40,997 bases of DNA from the UHGV virus genome UHGV-0123923; one strand, written 5' to 3'. The position numbers and the translations under genes were made by a program. Under the pieces are notes generated by a model, which saw only the letters and a list, made by a program, of their open reading frames with translations, searched no databases and had not been told where the DNA came from. This document shows, one piece after another, positions 3,794 through 40,997 of the stretch. Position 1 is the first letter of the stretch. Each line of letters starts with the position of its first letter. Origin of the DNA: a virus.

Positions 3794-4081
3794 CTAACTA
3801 TAATAGTTCGCTATTAGGTCGTCAACCTGTTTAAACGAACCAACGACAAAAACATTCGCACCACGTTTACGCATCCGCTCATGTTCCCGTAGCTGGTGCG
3901 GGTCTGGCTTCGTGTTCTCGTCTTTCTTAACCTCGACGAACCAGACTATGCCGCCGGGGATAATTACCAGCAGGTCGGGGGCGCCCGCTCTATTTTCGTA
4001 CGACAATTTGCGTACGAGGCCTCCCAGGGCCTCGAATCGCTCTTTTGCGTATTCCTGCACGCGCCCCTCAGGCGTACTCAT
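3794..4081 (-). CDS. VRR-NUC domain nuclease
   Basis: 95 aa; GGGAGGGG RBS; motifs PDLLVI...VEVK consistent with a PD-(D/E)XK VRR-NUC fold. Confidence 0.7.
   Translation of the reverse strand: MSTPEGRVQEYAKERFEALGGLVRKLSYENRAGAPDLLVIIPGGIVWFVEVKKDENTKPDPHQLREHERMRKRGANVFVVGSFKQVDDLIANYYS
3797..3825 (-). promoter_or_regulatory. sigma70-like promoter (TTGACG-N17-TATAGT) with operator motif, embedded in the 3' end of the VRR-NUC gene
   Basis: minus-strand -35 is the reverse complement of 3820..3825, -10 of 3797..3802; AATAG(3802..3806)-N4-CTATT(3811..3815) palindrome in the spacer. Confidence 0.45.
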
Positions 4082-9641: not shown

Positions 9642-9671
9642 GCTTTTCTAAAATAATTAATATGGTACTAT
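9642..9671 (+). promoter_or_regulatory. operator motif with weak promoter upstream of the Cro-like gene
   Basis: AATAT(9658..9662)-GGTA-CTATT(9667..9671); TACTAT -10 at 9665..9670; poor -35 (TTTTCT). Confidence 0.35.
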
Positions 9672-9702
9672 TCACATATCAACTGACTAAGGAGTAATTG
9701 GC

Positions 9703-9918
9703 ATGCAACCATCTGAACTAGGTATCCGTGTAGAGCAACGCCGTAAAGAACTCGGTATCTCCCAGCGCCATCTGGCTGTCCTGGCCGGTGTTTCCCAAGG
9801 CGCAATTAACCAGCTTGCACTCGGTGTAACTCAGGACGTCCGCCCGGCGACGCTGTTTAAACTGGCGGAAGTGCTTGAAGTAGACGCCAAGTGGCTGTCG
9901 TTCGGTGAAGGGGCTTAA
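9703..9918 (+). CDS. XRE-family helix-turn-helix regulator (Cro/CI-like)
   Basis: 71 aa; AAGGAG RBS; HTH signature LGISQRHLAVLAGVSQGAINQLALG. Confidence 0.8.
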   Translation: MQPSELGIRVEQRRKELGISQRHLAVLAGVSQGAINQLALGVTQDVRPATLFKLAEVLEVDAKWLSFGEGA

Positions 9919-12451: not shown

Positions 12452-12727
12452 TTATTCCAGGTCGCGGGAGATATTACCCTCGGGCACCAACACTTTTCCA
12501 ATACTTCTCGCTTTCTCTGTAATAGGCGTCGCTCTTGTTGCCCGATAAAACTTTCCTTTATTAAGAATCTCACCATGTCGCTCGAGCACATCTAAAGCAT
12601 GTTTGATCGGGTTTACACCGTAATTATCCAACCGGTATCTCCGAAGCCCGTCTACCGTAAAAGCGCCGTTCGCTTCGGTCAGTCTGCGTGCACACATTAA
12701 TATGTGTTTCTGGAATTTAGTTAGCAT
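12452..12727 (-). CDS. hypothetical protein (~91 aa)
   Basis: start placed at the ATG behind a TAAGGAGA RBS; the longer upstream extension in the ORF track is likely spurious. Confidence 0.4.
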   Translation of the reverse strand: MLTKFQKHILMCARRLTEANGAFTVDGLRRYRLDNYGVNPIKHALDVLERHGEILNKGKFYRATRATPITEKARSIGKVLVPEGNISRDLE

Positions 12728-12896
12728 CTTTAACGTTCTCCTTAATCCACGCCTCCACAGTAGCGCGGTCAAAGGTACCTGGCTGACGGTAGCCGTTGAT
12801 AACGCGGCAACACTCCGGGAACTTTCCTGACCGAAGCCAGCGATTAAGAGTCATAGGGGAAACCCCGATTAAGTCTGCTACTTCTTTCTGTGTCAT
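12717..12896 (-). CDS. AlpA/excisionase-like small HTH DNA-binding protein
   Basis: start placed at ATG (MTQKEVADLIGVSPMTLNRWL) behind a GAGAGGG RBS; first gene of the primase operon. Confidence 0.55.
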   Translation of the reverse strand: MTQKEVADLIGVSPMTLNRWLRSGKFPECCRVINGYRQPGTFDRATVEAWIKENVKDAN

Positions 12897-12958: not shown

Positions 12959-12986
12959 TTGACAAAATAAAATGTAGCTGTAAAAT
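12959..12986 (+). promoter_or_regulatory. candidate rightward promoter (TTGACA-N16-TAAAAT)
   Basis: TTGACA 12959..12964, TAAAAT 12981..12986 preceded by TG; AT-rich surroundings. Confidence 0.4.
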
Positions 12987-13053
12987 CAACGTATCGAATG
13001 GCTTTAGTTAAGAATTACTTAGAAACAATATTCTTAAGTCTCGGGTACTTAAA

Positions 13054-13073
13054 GCCCCGCCATAAAGCGGGGC
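13054..13073. other. conserved GC hairpin element, copy 1 (GCCCCGC-CATAAA-GCGGGGC)
   Basis: 7 bp perfect stem; same stem and flanks recur inverted at 24547..24566. Confidence 0.5.
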
Positions 13074-13317
13074 GCTAAATAGTACTCTTGGTAACGTTAG
13101 TATCTAAGTTTCCTCAAAGTAACAGCAAGTGGCAAGAAAGCCCCCGTCTATTTAAATTTTACCCTCCTTCATAAGCCACTGATAATTAAAAGTTTCTATA
13201 GTTGCCGTAAACGTGGAAGAGAGTACTTCACTTCGCTGGGGTGGGCTAACGCCCACCCACTGCGTTGCGTACTCTTTTAAGAAACGAAAGAATCACAACG
13301 GCAACGTAACTATTCTC

Positions 13318-13346
13318 TTGCACACCCCAACATAATAGGATACTAT
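13318..13346 (+). promoter_or_regulatory. promoter (TTGCAC-N17-TACTAT) with operator motif, for the rightward small-gene block
   Basis: TTGCAC 13318..13323, TACTAT 13341..13346; AATAG(13334..13338)-GATA-CTATT(13343..13347); ~36/39 nt identical to the reverse-strand promoter at 33012..33040. Confidence 0.55.
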
Positions 13347-13380
13347 TCACTTATCGAAACGAGACAGAGGAGTGAGGGTT

Positions 13381-17556: not shown

Positions 17557-17577
17557 TCTATCTTCCGCAATGACTAG

Positions 17578-17606
17578 TTGACTATTACTCTCACACCAAT
17601 TATATT
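17578..17606 (+). promoter_or_regulatory. promoter (TTGACT-N17-TATATT)
   Basis: TTGACT 17578..17583, TATATT 17601..17606; ACTATT half-site overlaps the -35. Confidence 0.5.
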
Positions 17607-18598: not shown

Positions 18599-18769
18599 AT
18601 GTTCAGTGACATTAACGCGGCAATCGAAGAAGCAATCTGGCGTCGCTACAACGGCGAGCAACAACGGCACTTCTGCCTGGTGCAGCGCGGTAACGTGATT
18701 GCCGTGGTACAGGACCGCGATAGTAAATATCCGAATGCGATGTGGACAACGAGGAATTTCTTAGGATGA
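18599..18769 (+). CDS. hypothetical small protein (56 aa)
   Basis: ATG 3 nt after the previous stop; stop overlaps the next ATG. Confidence 0.3.
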   Translation: MFSDINAAIEEAIWRRYNGEQQRHFCLVQRGNVIAVVQDRDSKYPNAMWTTRNFLG

Positions 18770-19002
18770 TTACCAGCATTCCGAACCTGATTAAAGAATT
18801 CGGCACGATGGCGGAGACATGCCGACAAACCGGCATCAACGAGATGACGATTGCCAAGTACAGCAAAGACGTTAACTGCGAGCGCCATGTAATTTATAAC
18901 AACCGTCTGATGACGCACGTTAAGACAAGCCCGGTGTTATTCACGCGCCGGGGTATCACTAAAACGGAGCAACGTATTGCTAAAGAGGAGAGTGGGGGAT
19001 GA
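18766..19002 (+). CDS. hypothetical protein, possible HTH
   Basis: start moved to the internal ATG; segment ETCRQTGINEMTIAKYSK resembles an HTH. Confidence 0.4.
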   Translation: MITSIPNLIKEFGTMAETCRQTGINEMTIAKYSKDVNCERHVIYNNRLMTHVKTSPVLFTRRGITKTEQRIAKEESGG

Positions 19003-23787: not shown

Positions 23788-24248
23788 TGATGGGCTTTTT
23801 CAAAGTAACTGACGTACCGTCTCGTCGCGTAGTCCAGTACGCCCGCGTGTCTGGCTCTGGCGAGAACGTGGTGTTTATTGAAGACGAAAGTGTACTCGGA
23901 ACACCAGTGGACGATATGCCGTTTGCGGACAAGACCGGTATTGCGCTGCCAGCGGCAGGTATGCTTTATGAGATTCAGTACCTGGCGGATGCTGGTGATG
24001 TGTATTTCTCCGTACAACCGCAGGACGCTGAACTGGCAGACGGCAGCGCAAATATCGCTGTCGAAGTTAAGGCGGGCAAAGCACCATATGCGCTGACCTG
24101 GTACAAAGACGGGAAGGAAGTGGTAAACGCCCCGGAAGAGGCTCTGTCTCTGACGGTTAACGCAGTTGGTGAATACTTCGTTAAAGTCACTGATGCCGAC
24201 GGTATAGAGGCCGTAAGTAAAGCAGCGAAGGTTACTAAGCCAGAATAA
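23787..24248 (+). CDS. virion-associated protein with probable C-terminal Ig-like domain
   Basis: 153 aa; AAAGGGGAA RBS; motifs YALTWYKDGKEV...GEYFVKVTDADG resemble bacterial Ig-like domains. Confidence 0.4.
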   Translation: MMGFFKVTDVPSRRVVQYARVSGSGENVVFIEDESVLGTPVDDMPFADKTGIALPAAGMLYEIQYLADAGDVYFSVQPQDAELADGSANIAVEVKAGKAPYALTWYKDGKEVVNAPEEALSLTVNAVGEYFVKVTDADGIEAVSKAAKVTKPE

Positions 24249-24253
24249 ACTGA

Positions 24254-24275
24254 AGCCCCGAAAGGGGCTTTTTAG
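24254..24275 (+). terminator. intrinsic terminator
   Basis: AGCCCC-GAAA-GGGGCT followed by TTTTTAG. Confidence 0.7.
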
Positions 24276-24323
24276 TGCCTGTGATTATTCCAGTTATTCC
24301 ACTCAATTGTAAATGTTGGAATA

Positions 24324-24366
24324 AACTATTCGAATAGTTGACTTTTCACCAAAAATGTGCTAAGCT
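24324..24366 (+). promoter_or_regulatory. promoter (TTGACT-N17-TAAGCT) preceded by a perfect 16 bp palindrome AACTATTCGAATAGTT
   Basis: palindrome 24324..24339 overlaps the -35 (24338..24343); -10 at 24361..24366 preceded by TG. Confidence 0.45.
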
Positions 24367-24546
24367 CCACCTGAGCTTGTGAAGTATGAACAAGCGACCG
24401 CGGCGCGGGCAGGTAACGGAGCGGGACGTAAGTCCTGAGTGTAGTTACGCTGACGCGTTCGGAAGGGCCATACTCTATTGCTTGTGTAAAAAGTAACTTG
24501 TTTACTGAGATTACGCCGTTTCTATGTTTAAATGATAAGGACTAGC

Positions 24547-24566
24547 GCCCCGCTTTAAGGCGGGGC
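24547..24566. other. conserved GC hairpin element, copy 2 (GCCCCGC-TTTAAG-GCGGGGC), terminator-like on the + strand
   Basis: same stem and flanks as 13054..13073 in inverted orientation; followed by TTTACTT; 24 nt upstream of the Rz start. Confidence 0.5.
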
Positions 24567-24590
24567 TTTACTTATCGAGAAAGGGGAAAC

Positions 24591-24977
24591 ATGAATCTTA
24601 AAGCAACTGTCGTAGCGGGAGCATGTTTCATCATCCTGGCTTACGCACACGGCATCTACCAGTATCGCAGCGGCTGGAACGGAGGCCGGGCGAATCTCGT
24701 TTCGCAGCAACAGCAGAAAGCACAGGCTGAGTTAGCTAAGAAAACACAACGGCAGCAGCAGGATGAATCGAAGGCCGCCGCCGCTGATAACGAAGGCAAG
24801 ACGAAATCAGAGGTAATCACCCGTGAAGTCGTTAAGTACATTAAAACGCCTGGCCGCAGCGTGTGCACTTTTGACCCTGAGCGCGTGCAGCTCAAGTCCC
24901 GCGCCGTCGCAAACGCCAATTCCATCCCCGGATACGACGATGATGCAGCCGCCGTGCAAACTGGCACTGCCAAGTAA
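24591..24977 (+). CDS. i-spanin (Rz-like)
   Basis: AAAGGGGAAAC RBS; N-terminal TM segment followed by a Gln/Lys/Ala-rich helical region; overlapped by a lipoprotein gene in another frame. Confidence 0.6.
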   Translation: MNLKATVVAGACFIILAYAHGIYQYRSGWNGGRANLVSQQQQKAQAELAKKTQRQQQDESKAAAADNEGKTKSEVITREVVKYIKTPGRSVCTFDPERVQLKSRAVANANSIPGYDDDAAAVQTGTAK

Positions 24978-25086
24978 CGACGCGGACGAGGATTTAGCTA
25001 TTGACGTCCAGAACGCAGAATGTGTACGGCAACTGAGACTTAAAGTGTTCATGTTGCAGGATTACGTGAGGAATATTCTGGAATAG
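24823..25086 (+). CDS. o-spanin (Rz1-like outer-membrane lipoprotein)
   Basis: GTG start inside Rz in a different frame; lipobox LSAC after a signal-like segment, then a Pro-rich region; extends beyond the Rz stop. Confidence 0.6.
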   Translation: MKSLSTLKRLAAACALLTLSACSSSPAPSQTPIPSPDTTMMQPPCKLALPSNDADEDLAIDVQNAECVRQLRLKVFMLQDYVRNILE

Positions 25087-25165
25087 TTGCCTTGTATGTT
25101 GGAATAATTTATTCTTGACATGTAAATCCGGGTGGCCCGGATTCCAACGTCCAGGGGACATACTG

Positions 25166-26824: not shown

Positions 26825-26992
26825 GTGGAAATTAAATACGTACCAATGCCAATTACCATCGAGCAGAAGCGCGAGTATAACCGTCAGGGGTTCCGTGTGG
26901 TAGATGCTCGTTTCGCACCAGAAGGCACCGTGGTAGAATCGGCTAAAGAAGAGACACCACGCCGCCAGCGCCGGGCGAAATCAGAGGAATAA
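26825..26992 (+). CDS. hypothetical small protein (55 aa), GTG start
   Basis: TAGGAGA RBS 7 nt before GTG; translation VEIKYVPMPITIEQKREYNRQGFRVVDARFAPEGTVVESAKEETPRRQRRAKSEE. Confidence 0.35.
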   Translation: MEIKYVPMPITIEQKREYNRQGFRVVDARFAPEGTVVESAKEETPRRQRRAKSEE

Positions 26993-27510: not shown

Positions 27511-28125
27511 ATGGCAAAGACCAAAACAGAGATGTTTGCCCTTATCGGCGCTAACCTTCCCGATAACACCACCGGGCTTATCACACCCGAGAAGTTACGC
27601 GAAGTAATGACGCAGATGGCAGATTCGCCTATCTATGCCACTCCCGGGGTGAAAGAGGTTGAAGTTCTCCGTGCCGCGTCCACTGTAATACTAGCACCAT
27701 CCGCAGTGGACACAGCATTGCAAATAACTTTCGGTGCTGCCCAGGGAGGCGCGTCTAACCCGGTAATGATTAATGCCGCAGGGCTTGTTACATTCAACAC
27801 CGCGGGTAACTACGCCGTTCGCATCAAGTTACAGGCGGGGCGTACTGGCGCTAGTGGGACATCAATCCTGCTATCACGTATTTTAGTAAACGGTGCTCAG
27901 TACGGCTCTCCCGCAGCAACTAAGCTGGTAAGCGCGGACGTGACCATCCCGATTGAATCTCGCGTCGTTATTAACACAACCGCAGGCCAGACGTTTGCCG
28001 TTCAGATTATGCGGGATAGTGCCGGGACCAACTTCGGCGGCGTATATCCGCAAGTTGCTACCGTAACCGCATGGGGTACAGCACCATCCGCATTACTGGT
28101 TATTTCGAGACTGGAGGCCGCTTGA
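27511..28125 (+). CDS. virion structural protein, function unknown
   Basis: position in the head-tail joining block. Confidence 0.4.
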   Translation: MAKTKTEMFALIGANLPDNTTGLITPEKLREVMTQMADSPIYATPGVKEVEVLRAASTVILAPSAVDTALQITFGAAQGGASNPVMINAAGLVTFNTAGNYAVRIKLQAGRTGASGTSILLSRILVNGAQYGSPAATKLVSADVTIPIESRVVINTTAGQTFAVQIMRDSAGTNFGGVYPQVATVTAWGTAPSALLVISRLEAA

Positions 28126-28219
28126 TGAATAAGTTCACATGTGGTGTAGTTTTTGGTTTTCTTACCGCGGTAGTCTTGCACAGTTACGGTGTTCTTTTGA
28201 CGCTGCAAGAGGTGCTAAA

Positions 28220-28579
28220 ATGAGCACCGCTTTCAGTAAACGTATGCAAGGCGTGGGTACGCGCCTGCTAACCAAATTCGGTAGCACGGTATCTCTGATT
28301 CGCGCTGGTTCAAAAGTATGGGATGAAGTTCTCGGTGAGTACGTCTGGTCTGCGGATGAAGTGTTGCCGTTGAAGGCCGTTCCGGTTCCGGTAAACGCGG
28401 GACTGGTAAACGGTACGACGATTCAGGCTGGCGACATGATTGTTAAAGCCGATTACAGCGTCGTTCCGAAGATGGAAGACAAGGTGCAATTCGGCGGCGA
28501 GCAATGGTCCATCGTAGCTATTGAGAAGAAGATGGTTAACGATGACGTCGTGGCATACTTTATTCAGGTGAGAAAATGA
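28220..28579 (+). CDS. head-tail joining protein candidate
   Basis: start moved to ATG (MSTAFSKRMQ) behind GAGGTG; position. Confidence 0.4.
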   Translation: MSTAFSKRMQGVGTRLLTKFGSTVSLIRAGSKVWDEVLGEYVWSADEVLPLKAVPVPVNAGLVNGTTIQAGDMIVKADYSVVPKMEDKVQFGGEQWSIVAIEKKMVNDDVVAYFIQVRK

Positions 28580-28971
28580 GTTTCGCGCTCGATGTCTCTA
28601 AGTTCGTGGAAAAGGCGAAGAAGAACCCTGAGAAGGTGATGCGTCAGGTGTCTATCAAGCTGTTTTCCGCTATTATAAAGGCGAGTCCGGTAGACACGGG
28701 CCGCTTTCGTATGAACTGGATGGCATCTGGCGGTACTCCTGCTTCCGGGATTACGGACGCTACGGATAAATCAGGAAGCACAGCAACCGGAAACGCTACG
28801 AGTTTCGTGCTGAAAGCCGCTGACTGGCATGAGTTCACGCTGACAAATAATCTGCCGTATGCGCAACGGCTGGAGTATGGTTGGTCGCAACAGGCGCCAG
28901 CCGGGGTTGTCAGGACTAATGTGTCTCGCTTCCAGCAACTCATTAACGAAGAAGCCAACAAGGTGAAATGA
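28576..28971 (+). CDS. HK97 gp10-like tail component candidate
   Basis: motif SPVDTGRFRMNW; ATGA overlap with the upstream gene. Confidence 0.45.
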   Translation: MSFALDVSKFVEKAKKNPEKVMRQVSIKLFSAIIKASPVDTGRFRMNWMASGGTPASGITDATDKSGSTATGNATSFVLKAADWHEFTLTNNLPYAQRLEYGWSQQAPAGVVRTNVSRFQQLINEEANKVK

Positions 28972-29384
28972 TGGGCTACTTTGAGGACTTAACAAAAGCG
29001 TTCGATGTTCCGCTGGTAGCCTTCGGAACCGCCAACGGCATCAAGGTCGCGCTTGAAAACATCGACGCGCCGACGTCAACCGATACGCCATATCTGGCAA
29101 GTTACATGTTACTGGCGGATACCGAGCAAGCAGATTTGTTCTTCACGGAACAACGCGCGGGTGTTTATCAGGTCGACATTAACTACGCATCGGTGAAAGG
29201 TAGCGCGCCAATCAATAAAATGGCAGACTTACTTAACACGGCATTCAAAGCAGGTAAGTCATTTTCTCGTAACGACATCTGCGCCGAGGTTCAATCGGTT
29301 AGCCTGGGGCCGCTGATTGTAGAAAACGGATGGGCCAAACGACCATTGTCAATTAACTTTATCGCATTCACCAAGAGGCTGTGA
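28968..29384 (+). CDS. tail completion/terminator protein candidate
   Basis: position immediately upstream of the major tail gene; overlapping starts. Confidence 0.4.
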   Translation: MMGYFEDLTKAFDVPLVAFGTANGIKVALENIDAPTSTDTPYLASYMLLADTEQADLFFTEQRAGVYQVDINYASVKGSAPINKMADLLNTAFKAGKSFSRNDICAEVQSVSLGPLIVENGWAKRPLSINFIAFTKRL

Positions 29385-30553
29385 ATATGGCTACAACTCC
29401 TTTTAAGGGCGCGAATACTGCGCAATTCTATGTGGCAGAAACTACCCCTGGCGTAACACCGACTAACCCGGTCTGGTCGCCATTGCGTAACACAGGTGGC
29501 GTTCCTGCCATTACCCGCGACACGCTGACCTCCAACGAACTGGACGGCAGCCGTGAAACTACGTCAATACGCACCGGTAACAAGCAGGTTAGCGGAGAAT
29601 ACGCTATTGAGCTTAGCTCGAAAAGCCAGGACGACTGGCTGGCGGGAGCTTTAGGCTCTACATGGCAATCCGGTAGTTCTCTGACCGGGCTATCAATTAC
29701 CGTCGCGCCCGCAGGCAAGACCTTTACCCGTGCCGAAGGTAGCTTTATTTCTGACGGCGTTGAAGTGGGCGACCTGATTGCGTTTACCGACTTAACCGGT
29801 GACAACGCAAAACCGTTTATCGTAACTGCAGTAGAGGCGCTGGTAGTGACCGGGGCGGGTATCCAGCATACCCTGACCACAGAGACAGTAACTACCGCCG
29901 CTAAGACAGGGGATAAACTGGAAACGGGAAGCCAGTGCAAGACGTTCTCTATTCTCACCTGGTACAAAGGCCAGTGCGGCGGGACTGACGCGTACACACT
30001 AACCAAAGGCGTGGAAGTTTCTGGTTTTACCATCGAACAGGCTGTTAACGCTATGGTAACTGGCAGCTTCCCGTTCATCGGTCGCAGTCAGGAGATTCTC
30101 ACCACGCAGCCGTCTGGTTCTGATTTCTCCTCTGTTACGTTTGGTGACGAGCCATTCTCCTCGGTCGATGTTTCTGTGTTCGACGGTTCTACGCCGTTGC
30201 GTTGCGACAGCCTGACCATCACCAACGACAACAGCGCGTCCGCACAGTTCGAACTCGGCAACACTAACGTAGCGTTTGTGGAGCGTAGCCGAGCAGCTAA
30301 CACCTTCTCCATCTCCGGTAAGCTGTACGACATGGCGATGATTCAGAAGTTTATCAACGAGCAGCAGGTGGAGATTAACTCTATTCTGGCTGGGGTAAAC
30401 GGGGCTATGTCTTTCAGTTTGAAACGTGCAGAACTTACAGCGGTTACGCCTGAGATTGGCGGGCCTGAGTCAATCACTCAGTCCATTGAAGGCCAGGCTA
30501 CTGGCAACCAGTACCAGTCATCTATTGTTATTCAGCGTATCACCTACGCTTAA
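29381..30553 (+). CDS. major tail protein
   Basis: 390 aa, Thr/Gly/Ser-rich; last gene before the tail chaperone block; strong terminator downstream. Confidence 0.5.
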   Translation: MNMATTPFKGANTAQFYVAETTPGVTPTNPVWSPLRNTGGVPAITRDTLTSNELDGSRETTSIRTGNKQVSGEYAIELSSKSQDDWLAGALGSTWQSGSSLTGLSITVAPAGKTFTRAEGSFISDGVEVGDLIAFTDLTGDNAKPFIVTAVEALVVTGAGIQHTLTTETVTTAAKTGDKLETGSQCKTFSILTWYKGQCGGTDAYTLTKGVEVSGFTIEQAVNAMVTGSFPFIGRSQEILTTQPSGSDFSSVTFGDEPFSSVDVSVFDGSTPLRCDSLTITNDNSASAQFELGNTNVAFVERSRAANTFSISGKLYDMAMIQKFINEQQVEINSILAGVNGAMSFSLKRAELTAVTPEIGGPESITQSIEGQATGNQYQSSIVIQRITYA

Positions 30554-32789: not shown

Positions 32790-32981
32790 CTACTTCTCTT
32801 TCACGTTCGAGTTGCAAGCCCAGATTAAAATAAATACCCACGGCAGCAGAACCCAACCAAGAAACAGATTAGCCATGAATATTGCCAACTTCGCTTTATG
32901 GTTACGGAAGTACGCAACCAGGAAAGGCGCGAAATAAGCGAGCAGCGCAAACAGAATTAAAGAAACCGGTAAACTGGACAT
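32790..32981 (-). CDS. small two-TM membrane protein resembling superinfection immunity (T4 Imm-like) proteins
   Basis: start at second ATG behind AAGGGG; PFLVAYFRNHKAKLAIFMANLFLGWVLLPWVFILIWA matches the pattern I recall for the Imm_superinfect family. Confidence 0.45.
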   Translation of the reverse strand: MSSLPVSLILFALLAYFAPFLVAYFRNHKAKLAIFMANLFLGWVLLPWVFILIWACNSNVKEK

Positions 32982-33011
32982 TTTAAACCCCTTCATTGTT
33001 GGTGTAAGTGA

Positions 33012-38533: not shown

Positions 38534-40997
38534 ATGCCGATGGAGTTTGTCGTTAGTCGTATCCCTGACGGCGTGCCGGTGCGCGTCTACCTCGGTGAGA
38601 TTGGCGATGATACAGACGTAACGGACGACTTCGACGCGCTTAAAGATGAAGACGCTGTGTACCACATTATTGAGGGTGCGGGTAGCGGGGCGCTCGGTGC
38701 GGTTAGTAAGGTGTTTGGTTTTATCCTTAAGCCAATCGCCAAGTTGTTTGGCCTGAACACGGCCGCCAACGCCAACTACACGGCGACTAACAACCAGACA
38801 ACATCACCAAATAACAGCCTCACAGACCGCTCAAACAAACCACGCCCTTACGAGCGCTCCTATGACATCTGCGGGACTGTGCAGACAATCCCTAATGACC
38901 TGATGCAGACGTATAAGGCGTTCAACTCCACTGGTGCTTTGCTGGAGTATTCGTACTATGACGCAGGGCGCGGACATCTGCATATTGAGGCTGATGGCGT
39001 CACAGAGGGCGACACCCTGATAAGCGACATCACAGGTTCATCTGTTGCCGTATACGCGCCGTATACGTCACCGAACAACACCACATCGCCGCAACTACAA
39101 ATCGGCGACGTCATCGACCAGAAACTCTATGTGACGTACTCTAACGACGACGTTGACGGTATTGTACTGAAAGCGCCAAACGACATTGGAGCTAACCCAA
39201 GCGCCGACGGCACAGCTAAACGTATTTCAAACACCGGCTACATTTATGACCCGTCAGGGGACTCTGCTTTTTCTGAGTTTCTTAGCGTCGGGGATGTCGC
39301 GGTTCTGAGCAACTTCGACGTTGCTGATGTGACTAACCTGAATGGTTCGTTTGAGGTTTTATACGTTGACGACTTCGAAGTGAGATTAGCCGTAAACGGC
39401 GCGTCTAACTGGGCAGCGTTGACCAGCGGGCAAACGTACGCCCTAACAGAGCGTTCAGATACGTTTATCGGCCCGAGCAACACCTATGACGTATCTCTTA
39501 CGGACTGGTATTACATGGTGCGCGGAGAGGTTGACCGGGTACTTGCTAACGTTGCCGGGCAGAACGGCCTCTACAAATACGACGGAGGCTATAACCGCAC
39601 CAGTGTAACGGTGGAACTCCAGTACCAGATGATTGATTCTCAGCGTAACCCGTTGAGCGATATTTACACGGTACAGGCCACAATTACAGGCAACAATACG
39701 GATTACGTCGGTACGTCTATCTACGGGCAATTGCCGACCGCGTCCCGTTTCCGCGCCCGTATGCGTCGTGTAACTAATTTCGATAAAGACTACGACGGTA
39801 CGGTAAGCGACGAGATAACATTCATTAACCTGTATGGGCAGTCTCTGGACACCACTCCACACTACGGCAACAGAACTACCGTACATTGCGCCCGTAAACA
39901 GACGCCGCGTGCCGCCAGCATAGACAACCCGGAACTGCGCATGATTGCAACCGAGATGTGTTACAAATACCTCGGCAATGGGGTATTCGATACAGTAATG
40001 ACACCGAACACGCAAGCCGTACAATCTCTAATTCGACTGGCGCGCGACCCCGCAGTAGGCAATCTGGAACTGACAACGGCAAACATGGACAAGTTACTTG
40101 CTGTGCAGGAAGAAATTGAGTCCTATTTCGGAAGTGAATTAGCAGGGCAATTCTGCTACACGTTCGACGACTATGACACAACCATGCAGGACATCGTCCA
40201 GACCATAGCGGAAGCCGTTTTCTGTACTGCGTACCGTAAAGGTGCGGATATTATGCTGCGATTCGACCGTCCTGTCGCGGGGCCTGAAATGGTGTTCACC
40301 CACCGCAGCAAAACTACCGGTACAGAGAAATGGACCCGCACGTTCAACGATTCGACAACCTACGATAGCCTGTCGTTCTCATACATCGACCCGGATACTA
40401 ACGTACAGGAAACGATTTACATCCCGGAAGAACTGGGTGCAAATACGGAGGAATACGAATCAAAGGGCGTGCGTAACTACCAACAGGCATATTGGCTGGC
40501 GTGGCGTCGCTATCAGCGCAATGCGTTAAGTAAAGTTGTTGTAGAGTTCGAAGCTACGGAAGAAGGTGCGCTCGCTACGCCCGGTGGGGTAATCAGCGTA
40601 GTTAAAGGTTCACGTATCGCGCCACAGGACGGCTATGTTGTTGCCGTTAACGGGCTTACACTTACGCTATCCCAGCCTGTTACGTTTACTCCTGGCGACG
40701 ACCACTCCATCATTCTTAAGAAGCGCGATGGCTCAGTGCAGAGTATCTCTGTCATCAAAGGAAGACACGACCGCGAAGTGATTATGCTCTCCGCGCCGGA
40801 GGAGGCAATCTACACGGGGAATAGCGCACTAAAAACTGAGTTTTCATTCGGCAACGAAGCAAGGCATAATGCCCAGAAGATAGTTGTTTCTTCAATCGAC
40901 CCTGGCGACGACCGCACGGTCAAGATTACTGGCTACAACTATGACGACGGATTCTATAAATACGACGGCGTCGCGCCATACGGCAGCGGTTTCTCCG
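38534..40997 (+). CDS. tail tip / host specificity protein (lambda gpI/gpJ-like), 3' partial at window end
   Basis: I traced one frame codon by codon from ATG 38534 to the last base with no stop (at least 821 codons); absent from the ORF track, presumably because it lacks an in-window stop; start codon uncertain (TTG 38468 also possible). Confidence 0.6.
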   Translation, partial: MPMEFVVSRIPDGVPVRVYLGEIGDDTDVTDDFDALKDEDAVYHIIEGAGSGALGAVSKVFGFILKPIAKLFGLNTAANANYTATNNQTTSPNNSLTDRSNKPRPYERSYDICGTVQTIPNDLMQTYKAFNSTGALLEYSYYDAGRGHLHIEADGVTEGDTLISDITGSSVAVYAPYTSPNNTTSPQLQIGDVIDQKLYVTYSNDDVDGIVLKAPNDIGANPSADGTAKRISNTGYIYDPSGDSAFSEFLSVGDVAVLSNFDVADVTNLNGSFEVLYVDDFEVRLAVNGASNWAALTSGQTYALTERSDTFIGPSNTYDVSLTDWYYMVRGEVDRVLANVAGQNGLYKYDGGYNRTSVTVELQYQMIDSQRNPLSDIYTVQATITGNNTDYVGTSIYGQLPTASRFRARMRRVTNFDKDYDGTVSDEITFINLYGQSLDTTPHYGNRTTVHCARKQTPRAASIDNPELRMIATEMCYKYLGNGVFDTVMTPNTQAVQSLIRLARDPAVGNLELTTANMDKLLAVQEEIESYFGSELAGQFCYTFDDYDTTMQDIVQTIAEAVFCTAYRKGADIMLRFDRPVAGPEMVFTHRSKTTGTEKWTRTFNDSTTYDSLSFSYIDPDTNVQETIYIPEELGANTEEYESKGVRNYQQAYWLAWRRYQRNALSKVVVEFEATEEGALATPGGVISVVKGSRIAPQDGYVVAVNGLTLTLSQPVTFTPGDDHSIILKKRDGSVQSISVIKGRHDREVIMLSAPEEAIYTGNSALKTEFSFGNEARHNAQKIVVSSIDPGDDRTVKITGYNYDDGFYKYDGVAPYGSGFS

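Follow-up and report, generated by a model that had tools for sequence, protein, structure and literature searches.

A 16-bp palindrome ahead of a predicted structured RNA, and a family of promoter-associated inverted repeats, in a Kagunavirus genome

The locus and the sequences compared

The virus genome UHGV-0123923, analysed as one stretch of 40,997 nucleotides (the window), represents an essentially complete Kagunavirus genome (Guernseyvirinae; a K1H/K1G-like, K1-type Escherichia coli siphophage) and its gene order is the same as that of phage K1H. The subject of this work is a perfect 16-bp palindrome in the 342-bp spacer that separates a Hoc-like head-decoration gene, ending at position 24248, from the i-spanin gene, the ATG of which is at 24591. 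In the region studied the record OZ035752 is 99.6% identical to the window. Reading from the Hoc-like gene the spacer holds a terminator-like hairpin, a pair of direct repeats, the palindrome, a promoter that the palindrome overlaps and a predicted non-coding RNA, which ends in a second terminator-like hairpin shortly before the spanin genes (Table 1). The Guernseyvirinae, represented by the K1-capsule coliphages and the Jersey-type Salmonella phages, are widely isolated and are used in therapy and biocontrol. With respect to their transcription or non-coding RNA the literature yielded only a gene-level RNA-seq study together with PHIRE motif and promoter predictions.

Conservation was assessed on 37 distinct Kagunavirus-type variants and scored as minor alleles per column. 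The relatives cluster phylogenetically into essentially three or four lineages, so the variant counts given here and below do not represent independent events.

The core promoter

An initial annotation of the window placed a promoter, TTGACT-N17-TAAGCT, ahead of the spanin genes. The sequence is correct, and comparison of variants indicates that 24338-24366 is a genuine host-type promoter of the sigma-70 extended −10 kind. Among 21 distinct promoter variants the −35 hexamer is TTGACT, replaced by TAGACT, TCGACT or TAGATT in a few, whilst the TG at −15/−14 and the −10 hexamer TA(A/C)GCT are invariant. The spacer is always 17 nt long yet occurs as 18 different sequences. Hexamers, TG and spacer length that stay fixed while the spacer sequence varies constitute the classical comparative signature of a sigma-70 promoter, and it is on this basis that we regard the promoter as genuine. 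The nearly invariant −35 matches the consensus at five of six positions. The −10, with T−12, A−11 and T−7, matches at only three of six, which is why a simple consensus scan misses the promoter. A possible UP element at −59 to −38 was discarded, the match to consensus being poor on inspection.

In many relatives the promoter and the 5′ domain of the RNA occur a second time, as a paralogous copy in the early region beside an AlpA-like helix-turn-helix (HTH) gene. The homology of these early copies starts exactly at the −35 (ATTGACTTTTAC...); the sequence upstream is unrelated, with no trace of the palindrome and without the GGAATA motif. The core promoter is therefore kept without the palindrome. 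A covariance model search (see below) finds a single promoter-RNA copy in the window itself, that at the spanin locus.

A structured RNA ahead of the spanin genes

The product transcribed from this promoter is probably a conserved, structured non-coding RNA displaying strong covariation. The region 24286-24590 is 95-99% identical across 179 phage records, among them records of Salmonella phages in which the spanin protein reaches only 66-76% identity. The spacer is thus more conserved than the genes that flank it. Diverged versions of the RNA inform on its structure. One relative, L029, has a version that is 84% identical and the Jerseyvirus phages have a further version; compensatory changes set both apart from that of the window. 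The P4 hairpin reads GGGAC-GUAA-GUCC in the window, GUGC-GUAA-GCAC in L029 and GGGCGU-CACA-ACGCCC in Jerseyvirus, and one pair in the long helix is seen as C-G, U-A and A-U.

A covariance model, R1, based on 13 sequences and a hand-drawn structure comprising the P1 hairpin and the P2-P3-P4 rod, retrieves 28 copies. On the model alignment 97.4% of the cells assigned to pairs are paired, compared to 32-43% when the partners are slid by one to three columns; an alignment fitted to a covariance model leans towards the structure that was drawn, and the margin over the slid controls is large. Changes on both sides of a pair, that is compensatory changes, are present in 16 of the 28 pairs.

The terminator hairpin has a modest U-tract. 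In the Jerseyvirus version the stem covaries and the U-tract is weaker. Since the RNA ends in such a hairpin, the spanin, scaffold and capsid genes would be reachable from the promoter only by read-through. The earlier description of the promoter as one that precedes the spanin genes holds for its position, upstream of them, and not for its first product, which is predicted to be an RNA of about 200 nt with its own terminator and not the spanin mRNA.

In some records an open reading frame (ORF) of 36-38 amino acids, a 'hypothetical protein', is annotated in the spacer. We reject this as a protein gene since neither L029 nor Jerseyvirus retains the ATG and since the substitutions are base-pair compensatory; such ORFs probably represent the RNA gene, and the annotations could be corrected. 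A search of Rfam 15 with the window gave no match at the gathering or E-value threshold, the best sub-threshold scores being 13-15 bits against thresholds of 35-50, and ARAGORN, run on the window and on seven related loci, identified no tRNA. Comparison of the RNA region with 5,426 E. coli genomes revealed no counterpart; the palindrome itself was not among the queries. The family is found neither in Rfam nor in the literature searched.

At the position where relatives hold the early copy of the RNA the window has a different segment of about 210 bp (12959-13170), which also contains hairpins and has a good promoter consisting of TTGACA (12959-12964), N16 and TAAAAT (12981-12986). Within it, at 13050-13077, there is a 28-nt inverted copy, 96% identical, of the terminator of the RNA. 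This segment may encode another small RNA.

The palindrome

The initial annotation described the sequence at 24324-24339 as a perfect palindrome constructed from the half-site ACTATTC in everted arrangement. Both statements are borne out. The hexamers of a repeat family described below occur here in reverse order, and the centre, 24331.5, falls at −41.5 when the start of transcription is assumed to be G24373, 7 nt past the −10.

Might such an element arise by chance? There is one generic perfect palindrome with 8-bp arms against 0.6 expected per shuffled genome, and at least one occurs in 45% of shuffles. The 7-mer ACTATTC is present in 10 copies against 3.7 expected, and each of the ten lies inside an intergenic region or at its edge. 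By our own arithmetic, a directly following reverse complement would be expected at one of the other ~9 copies with a probability of about 9 × 4^−7, or ~5e-4.

The block 24308-24343 shows 0-0.4 minor alleles per column, like the −35, the −10 and the RNA, with the exception of the four columns 24314-24317, where the value is 1.5. For comparison the promoter spacer has 2.9 and positions 24301-24307 have 5.6. As the block varies as little as the promoter hexamers, the palindrome element is real and is constrained within the Kagunavirus-type lineage. The symmetry is a separate matter. The aligned counterpart in L029 is AACTATTCTAATGGTT, which keeps six of the eight pairs, and that in Jerseyvirus is ACTTTATTCAAAAAGTAG, which keeps three. 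The variants observed in close relatives (Table 1) are all one-sided and none is compensatory. The symmetry itself is therefore under no detectable selection, though the whole block is conserved in the Kagunavirus-type lineage. An alternative assignment of the palindrome, as the −10 of a minus-strand cassette-like promoter TAGCAC-N17-AACTAT, was rejected; the proposed −35 varies freely in relatives (TAGCAT, TATCAT).

To the left of the block, the first of two direct TTATTCC repeats reads TGgAATAAT on the minus strand and so resembles an extended −10. Together with an invariant TTTACA it makes up a predicted minus-strand promoter, TTTACA-N18-AATAAT. In K1H- and fBC-Eco01-type relatives two small minus-strand genes are inserted between the Hoc-like terminator and the TTATTCC repeats. 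The insert is absent from the window and from Jerseyvirus phages, and in the relatives that have it the AATAAT hexamer is not conserved.

A family of 16-bp inverted repeats

The word ACTATTC supplies one arm of an inverted repeat of 16 bp, (G/T)AATAG-N4-CTATT(C/A). Sites with at most one mismatch number ten in the window against 0.17 expected; six are perfect matches, and accepting T as the final base of the left arm brings in a seventh, that at 9658. A recognisable promoter underlies nine of the ten sites, the exception being 22704, and most promoters recognised in the window have a family site overlapping the −35, the spacer or the −10. The sites are found in both orientations and their placement differs. 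In type A (9658, 13333, 14627 and 33010) the repeat supplies the −10 of TTGCAC-N17-TACTAT. In type B (3801, 7208 and 9614) it is located in the spacer and −10 of opposite-strand promoters of the form TTGAC(A/G)-N17-TATAGT. In type C the −35, TTGACT, is embedded in the repeat, at 17572 in the window and at 40032 in the Jerseyvirus phage AG11, which has in addition five perfect TAATAG-N4-CTATTA sites.

We considered whether ACTATTC is simply the −10 of the TTGCAC-N17 promoters and rejected this, as it is true of four sites only. The repeat is an element in its own right since at 3801, 7208 and 9614 it occupies opposite-strand spacers and it overlaps the −35 at 17572 and 24332. The variable position relative to the −35 and −10 suggests that it acts as an operator rather than as part of the promoter itself. 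It occurs alike on replication, regulator (HTH), early-gene and pre-terminase promoters, and so the family is not specific to early genes. The initial annotation had linked the palindrome, through the shared ACTATTC, to 'early operators'. A promoter-associated inverted-repeat family does exist; its sites are not specifically early.

The right arm of the palindrome, read together with the CTTTTC that follows, gives a type C site at 24332-24347 with the geometry of the family, two inverted 6-bp arms separated by 4 bp, overlapping a core promoter element. The palindrome itself does not have this geometry. Its arms are everted with no spacing, whilst all ten family sites are inverted with N4. The hexamer GAATAG or GACTAG adjoins a −35 at 17572, 24332 and 25081.

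In the Kagunavirus fBC-Eco01 a 7-copy motif detected with PHIRE, tgAATAGTa-ccTATTat-T, has been attributed to a phage RNA polymerase (PMC9825357). The motif belongs to the same inverted-repeat family as that in the window. There is no RNA polymerase gene in the K1H or AG11 annotations and the repeat takes variable positions within sigma-70-type promoters, so an operator fits the fBC-Eco01 motif better than a promoter does. These 'phage RNA polymerase promoters' are probably operators, a second annotation that could be corrected.

Candidate DNA-binding proteins

The initial annotation supposed a regulator able to bind the half-site, and a small HTH protein that might do so is indeed encoded at 9703-9918. 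It matches PF01381 with E = 2e-11. The best match in the PDB is phage 434 Cro (E = 4e-7, full length), with C.AhdI, C.BclI and Csp231I as weak matches (E = 0.09-0.7). The protein shares 54% identity with its homologue in AG11, and the promoter of its gene carries the family site 9658-9673. This 434-Cro-like protein is likely the best candidate for binding the family repeats. A protein that binds the repeats was not found in the literature; in the gene-level RNA-seq study the one early gene given an annotated function is an HTH gene.

A protein of the HTH_17 family is a second candidate (Table 1). An 86-aa ORF at 18742-19002 on the plus strand gives a sub-threshold match to NinH, 21.8 bits as opposed to a cut-off of 29.8, and is possibly a third DNA-binding protein. 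It belongs to the operon of the 17572 promoter and is placed just ahead of the terminase genes.

The scaffold-gene promoter

A second example of the same late-promoter arrangement had been proposed upstream of the scaffold gene, where GAATAATTTATTC (25102-25114) adjoins TTGACA (25115-25120). The letters are as described; the TTGACA does not behave as a −35. No −10 follows it at a distance of 16-18 nt, and in Jerseyvirus it reads TTGTTA or TTGTTG. GAATAATTTATTC falls in the spacer and −10 of a different promoter, TTGCCT-N17-TATTCT with an overlapping TGGAATAAT extended −10, which is probably the promoter of the scaffold and capsid genes. The preceding GAATAG, both hexamers and the N17 spacing are invariant over eight distinct variants, Jerseyvirus included. 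The sequence starts GAATAG-TTGC-CTTGTA, with GAATAG adjoining the −35 as at 24332, and the stop codon of the o-spanin gene sits within that GAATAG. A hairpin in the scaffold-gene leader covaries, being ACACCGGG/CCCGGTGT in Jerseyvirus.

The scaffold and RNA promoters have in common the motif GAATA-N3-TATTC, which is found exactly twice in the window (0.02 expected), at 24319 and 25102. Both occurrences are retained in Jerseyvirus. The spacer and −10 of the scaffold promoter are made up of this motif; at the RNA promoter it occupies an upstream position. A mini-ORF, ATGTTGGAATAA, is common to the two sites and was rejected as it is not conserved in Jerseyvirus. One-mismatch matches, GGAATA-N3-TATTC, at 26986 and 28552 are in a coding or ribosome-binding-site context and are probably fortuitous.

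Regulation of the RNA promoter

We favour, with a probability of roughly 0.45, a reading in which a Cro-like regulator binds the family repeats and represses or tunes the RNA promoter through 24332-24347. The palindrome would then represent the upstream edge of the sigma-70 extended −10 promoter of the structured RNA. The relevant unit would be GAATAG-TTGA-CTTTTC, and it would share its dimeric regulator with the other family sites; the 434-Cro-like 71-aa protein is the best candidate for that regulator. Binding at 24332-24347 would cover the −35, and for that reason repression or tuning is predicted and not activation. The single mismatch suggests a weaker, later repression. The left arm of the palindrome would be an extra orphan half-site present only in the Kagunavirus-type lineage. 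The comparisons show the promoter, the structure of the RNA, the repeat family with its statistics and the patterns of conservation. Which protein binds, whether it represses or activates, the timing, the start site and the ends of the RNA are inferred from sequence.

Several observations weigh against this reading. CTTTTC occurs also in the paralogous early promoters, which lack the GAATAG left arm, so the one-mismatch match at 24332-24347 may be partly fortuitous; the chance of a CTTTTC-type match given the left arm is about 1% by our own arithmetic. In Jerseyvirus the promoter offers no closer match than one with two mismatches, and its register is offset by 3 bp. Finally, a single 16-bp operator leaves the conservation of the entire 24308-24343 block, left arm included, unexplained.

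What other roles might the palindrome have? The initial annotation envisaged activation from about −41.5, the class II position, by the same or a related regulator that represses early promoters, giving a temporal switch; we took this regulator to be a dimeric phage protein. The position is appropriate if transcription starts at 24373, the half-site is common to the inverted-repeat family and in Kagunavirus-type phages purifying selection acts on the block. Activation from about −42 is established for the 434 and lambda repressors, and the candidate protein is 434-like. We nevertheless consider activation quite unlikely. One symmetric dimer cannot use alike an everted arrangement with no spacing and the inverted arrangement with a 4-bp spacer that is seen in ten of ten family sites. 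A poor −35 is expected of class II promoters; here TTGACT matches at five of six positions and is conserved and the −10 is extended with an invariant TG, which leaves the promoter with no need of an activator. The core promoter persists without the palindrome in Jerseyvirus, in L029 and in the early paralogous copies, the variants in close relatives are one-sided and never compensatory, and the proposed second example, at 25115, fails. In addition the best PDB match of the candidate is Cro, a single-domain repressor. Given the near-consensus −35 and the lack of the palindrome in Jerseyvirus and in the paralogous copy, a repressor-type operator is likely a better explanation than class II activation. 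That the palindrome serves a host transcription factor is very improbable. It is palindromic and upstream of a host-type promoter; however it is not known to match the consensus sites of CRP, FNR, ArgR, Fur, Cra or TrpR, the half-site is a phage-specific repeated word, and the RNA region, queried without the palindrome, lacks a counterpart in the E. coli genomes searched.

Alternatively the palindrome and the GGAATA/TTATTCC repeats could constitute a shared control region for back-to-back divergent promoters, with one factor repressing one and helping the other, as for phi29 p4 or the controller proteins of restriction-modification systems. The plus-strand RNA promoter would be set against a minus-strand promoter that drives the two-gene insert in relatives. 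The promoter-like TTTACA-N18-TGgAATAAT at 24313-24284, the minus-strand genes immediately to the left in K1H- and fBC-Eco01-type phages and the conservation of TGTAAA and the repeats in both genera are consistent with this. Such an arrangement is unlikely though, because the insert genes have a cassette promoter of their own and the AATAAT −10 is not conserved in those phages, because in the window only a terminator hairpin lies downstream on the minus strand, and because the proposal names no candidate factor for the shared region. It is unlikely, too, that the palindrome is a by-product without a function of its own, formed at the junction of recombined promoter cassettes carrying ACTATTC in opposite orientations and retained through overlap with the −35 and other constrained sequence in a region that gains and loses the two-gene insert. 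Family cassettes do exist in both orientations, an insertion/deletion boundary is found near 24286 and the boundary of the duplicated promoter-plus-RNA module is exactly at the −35. The palindrome is absent from Jerseyvirus, and 0.6 generic palindromes of this size are expected per genome. Against this, each of the 16 positions, whether within the −35 or not, is conserved among the 37 variants to the same degree as the hexamers, and neighbouring columns vary freely.

Comparison with known systems

The proposed repression by a Cro-like protein has its closest parallel in phage 434 and lambda Cro, a repressor with several inverted-repeat operators that overlap promoters; the window likewise has a small single-domain HTH_3 protein and many 16-bp inverted repeats placed on core promoter elements, the promoter of that protein included. 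There are differences. The operator sequence in the window is unrelated to the 434 operators, ACAA-N6-TTGT, the phage is virulent with no cI partner, and the sites, to which binding is only predicted, are spread over most recognised promoters rather than gathered in OR/OL clusters. By this analogy the palindrome would work as part of a Cro-type repressor system with many operators and is best regarded as an ordinary regulatory palindrome. The more interesting by-products are the operator map of the subfamily and the RNA family. The palindrome has led to a testable regulatory map made up of a subfamily-wide 16-bp operator family, a Cro-like candidate regulator and a non-coding RNA, in many cases duplicated, that in the locus studied lies directly ahead of the spanin and capsid genes and is more conserved than the neighbouring proteins.

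The likeness to CRP/FNR class II sites is confined to a centre at about −41.5, over the upstream edge of the −35, given the assumed start. The near-consensus −35, the extended −10, a site that is not co-conserved with the promoter and a half-site arrangement unlike that of the other sites of the regulator are all different. In common with the C proteins and phi29 p4, one small protein with several sites near the −35 of divergent or tandem promoters could time a switch. The locus, however, has no tandem OL/OR pair of family geometry, and the similarity of the candidate to C proteins is marginal.

The layout of the locus is that of lambda PR′-6S-tR′ (Q) and of HK022 put, namely a constitutive-looking promoter, an RNA of about 200 nt and a terminator hairpin followed by lysis and structural genes, and as in HK022 put the 5′ domain of the RNA consists of two adjacent stem-loops. 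In contrast to lambda and HK022, the RNA has a second copy in the early region in relatives of the window. In contrast to lambda, a Pfam scan of 29 small ORFs of the window revealed no Q-like gene. A need for structure is not known for lambda 6S RNA. The covariance model, with filters off, scored at most 4.7 bits against HK022 27600-30100, which we take to be the stretch containing putL and putR.

Promoter, half-sites, RNA and terminator might together form the late-gene switch of the Guernseyvirinae. The RNA, with a two-hairpin 5′ domain of about 90 nt, would act on RNA polymerase in cis, as put does, or sequester a factor in trans and so permit read-through into the spanin, scaffold and capsid genes, whilst the Cro-like protein would provide timing by gating the RNA promoter via the GAATAG half-sites, the palindrome included. 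Taken as a whole, with both the action of the RNA and the Cro-like gating, we judge this scheme unlikely.

Table 1. Features of the locus, related sites elsewhere in the window and corresponding features in relatives. Positions refer to the window unless a relative is named; (.) denotes no assigned strand.
Feature	Position	Strand	Remarks
Terminator-like hairpin	24253..24270	(.)	3′ of Hoc-like gene; parts the promoter region from upstream late transcription
Two-gene insert in relatives	left of 24286; L051 188-674; L001 2050-2250		own family-type promoter
Two direct TTATTCC repeats	24285..24300	(+)	9 bp apart; identical in Jerseyvirus; second copy better conserved
TTTACA	24308..24313	(-)	−35-like hexamer of predicted minus-strand promoter; invariant
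GAATA-AAC-TATTC inverted repeat	24319..24331	(.)	part of 19-nt motif ATGTTGGAATAA-N-YTATTC common to 25096-25114
Perfect 16-bp palindrome AACTATTCGAATAGTT = AACTATTC|GAATAGTT	24324..24339	(.)	two family half-sites, everted order, zero spacer
One-sided palindrome variants	K1H AGCTATTC...; L014 ...GAATAGTC; L023 ...GAATATTT; L024 ACTATTTG...
GAATAG-TTGA-CTTTTC	24332..24347	(.)	palindrome right arm plus CTTTTC; one mismatch; type C, −35 embedded
−35 hexamer TTGACT, RNA promoter	24338..24343	(+)	kept across the distinct promoter variants
Extended −10 TGcTAAGCT	24357..24366	(+)	TG 24357-24358; TAAGCT 24361-24366
Predicted non-coding RNA, ~200 nt	24373..24572	(+)	both ends inferred
Parts of the RNA	P1 hairpin 24375-24395; rod P2-P3-P4 24398-24462; P4 GNRA hairpin 24423-24436	(+)	followed by A/U-rich region and terminator hairpin
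Terminator-like hairpin GCCCCGC-TTTAAG-GCGGGGC then TTTACTTAT	24547..24566	(+)	25 nt ahead of i-spanin ATG
Probable scaffold-gene promoter	25081..25115	(+)	GAATAG 25081-25086; −35 TTGCCT 25087-25092; N17 with TGGAATAAT; −10 TATTCT 25110-25115
Hairpin AATCCGGG-TGG-CCCGGATT	25125..25143	(+)	scaffold-gene leader; just downstream of TTGACA
Family sites in the window, 16 bp each	3801, 7208, 9614, 9658, 13333, 14627, 17572, 22704, 24332, 33010
TAATAG-GATA-CTATTC	13333..13348	(.)	overlaps −10 of TTGCAC-N17-TACTAT
GACTAG-TTGA-CTATTA	17572..17587	(.)	embeds −35 of TTGACT-N17-TATATT; architecture nearest to 24332-24347
Family sites in L101	14511, 25612, 29822, 36011, 37218, 40032
Paralogous early copies of promoter and RNA 5′ domain	L053 1230-1347; L066 11805-11922; L078 1604-1721; L090 12237-12354; L094 11331-11447; L099 6737-6853	(-) for L066 and L090
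71-aa HTH_3 protein	9703..9918	(+)	candidate binder of the inverted-repeat family
59-aa HTH_17 (AlpA/excisionase-like) protein	12720..12896	(-)	second candidate DNA-binding protein

Other observations

A 'tRNA-Ser' is annotated in the Salmonella phage wast and two other records (L100 535-612, minus strand; NC_073174 10477-10554). It is on the opposite strand and spans the end of the Hoc-like gene and its terminator. This is probably a false call, as ARAGORN reports zero tRNAs in the window and the seven related loci scanned, L100 itself not being one of them. On the minus strand, the family promoter at 33010 is followed first by a 68-aa ORF (32790-32996) that matches PF14373, a superinfection immunity family, with E = 9e-13.

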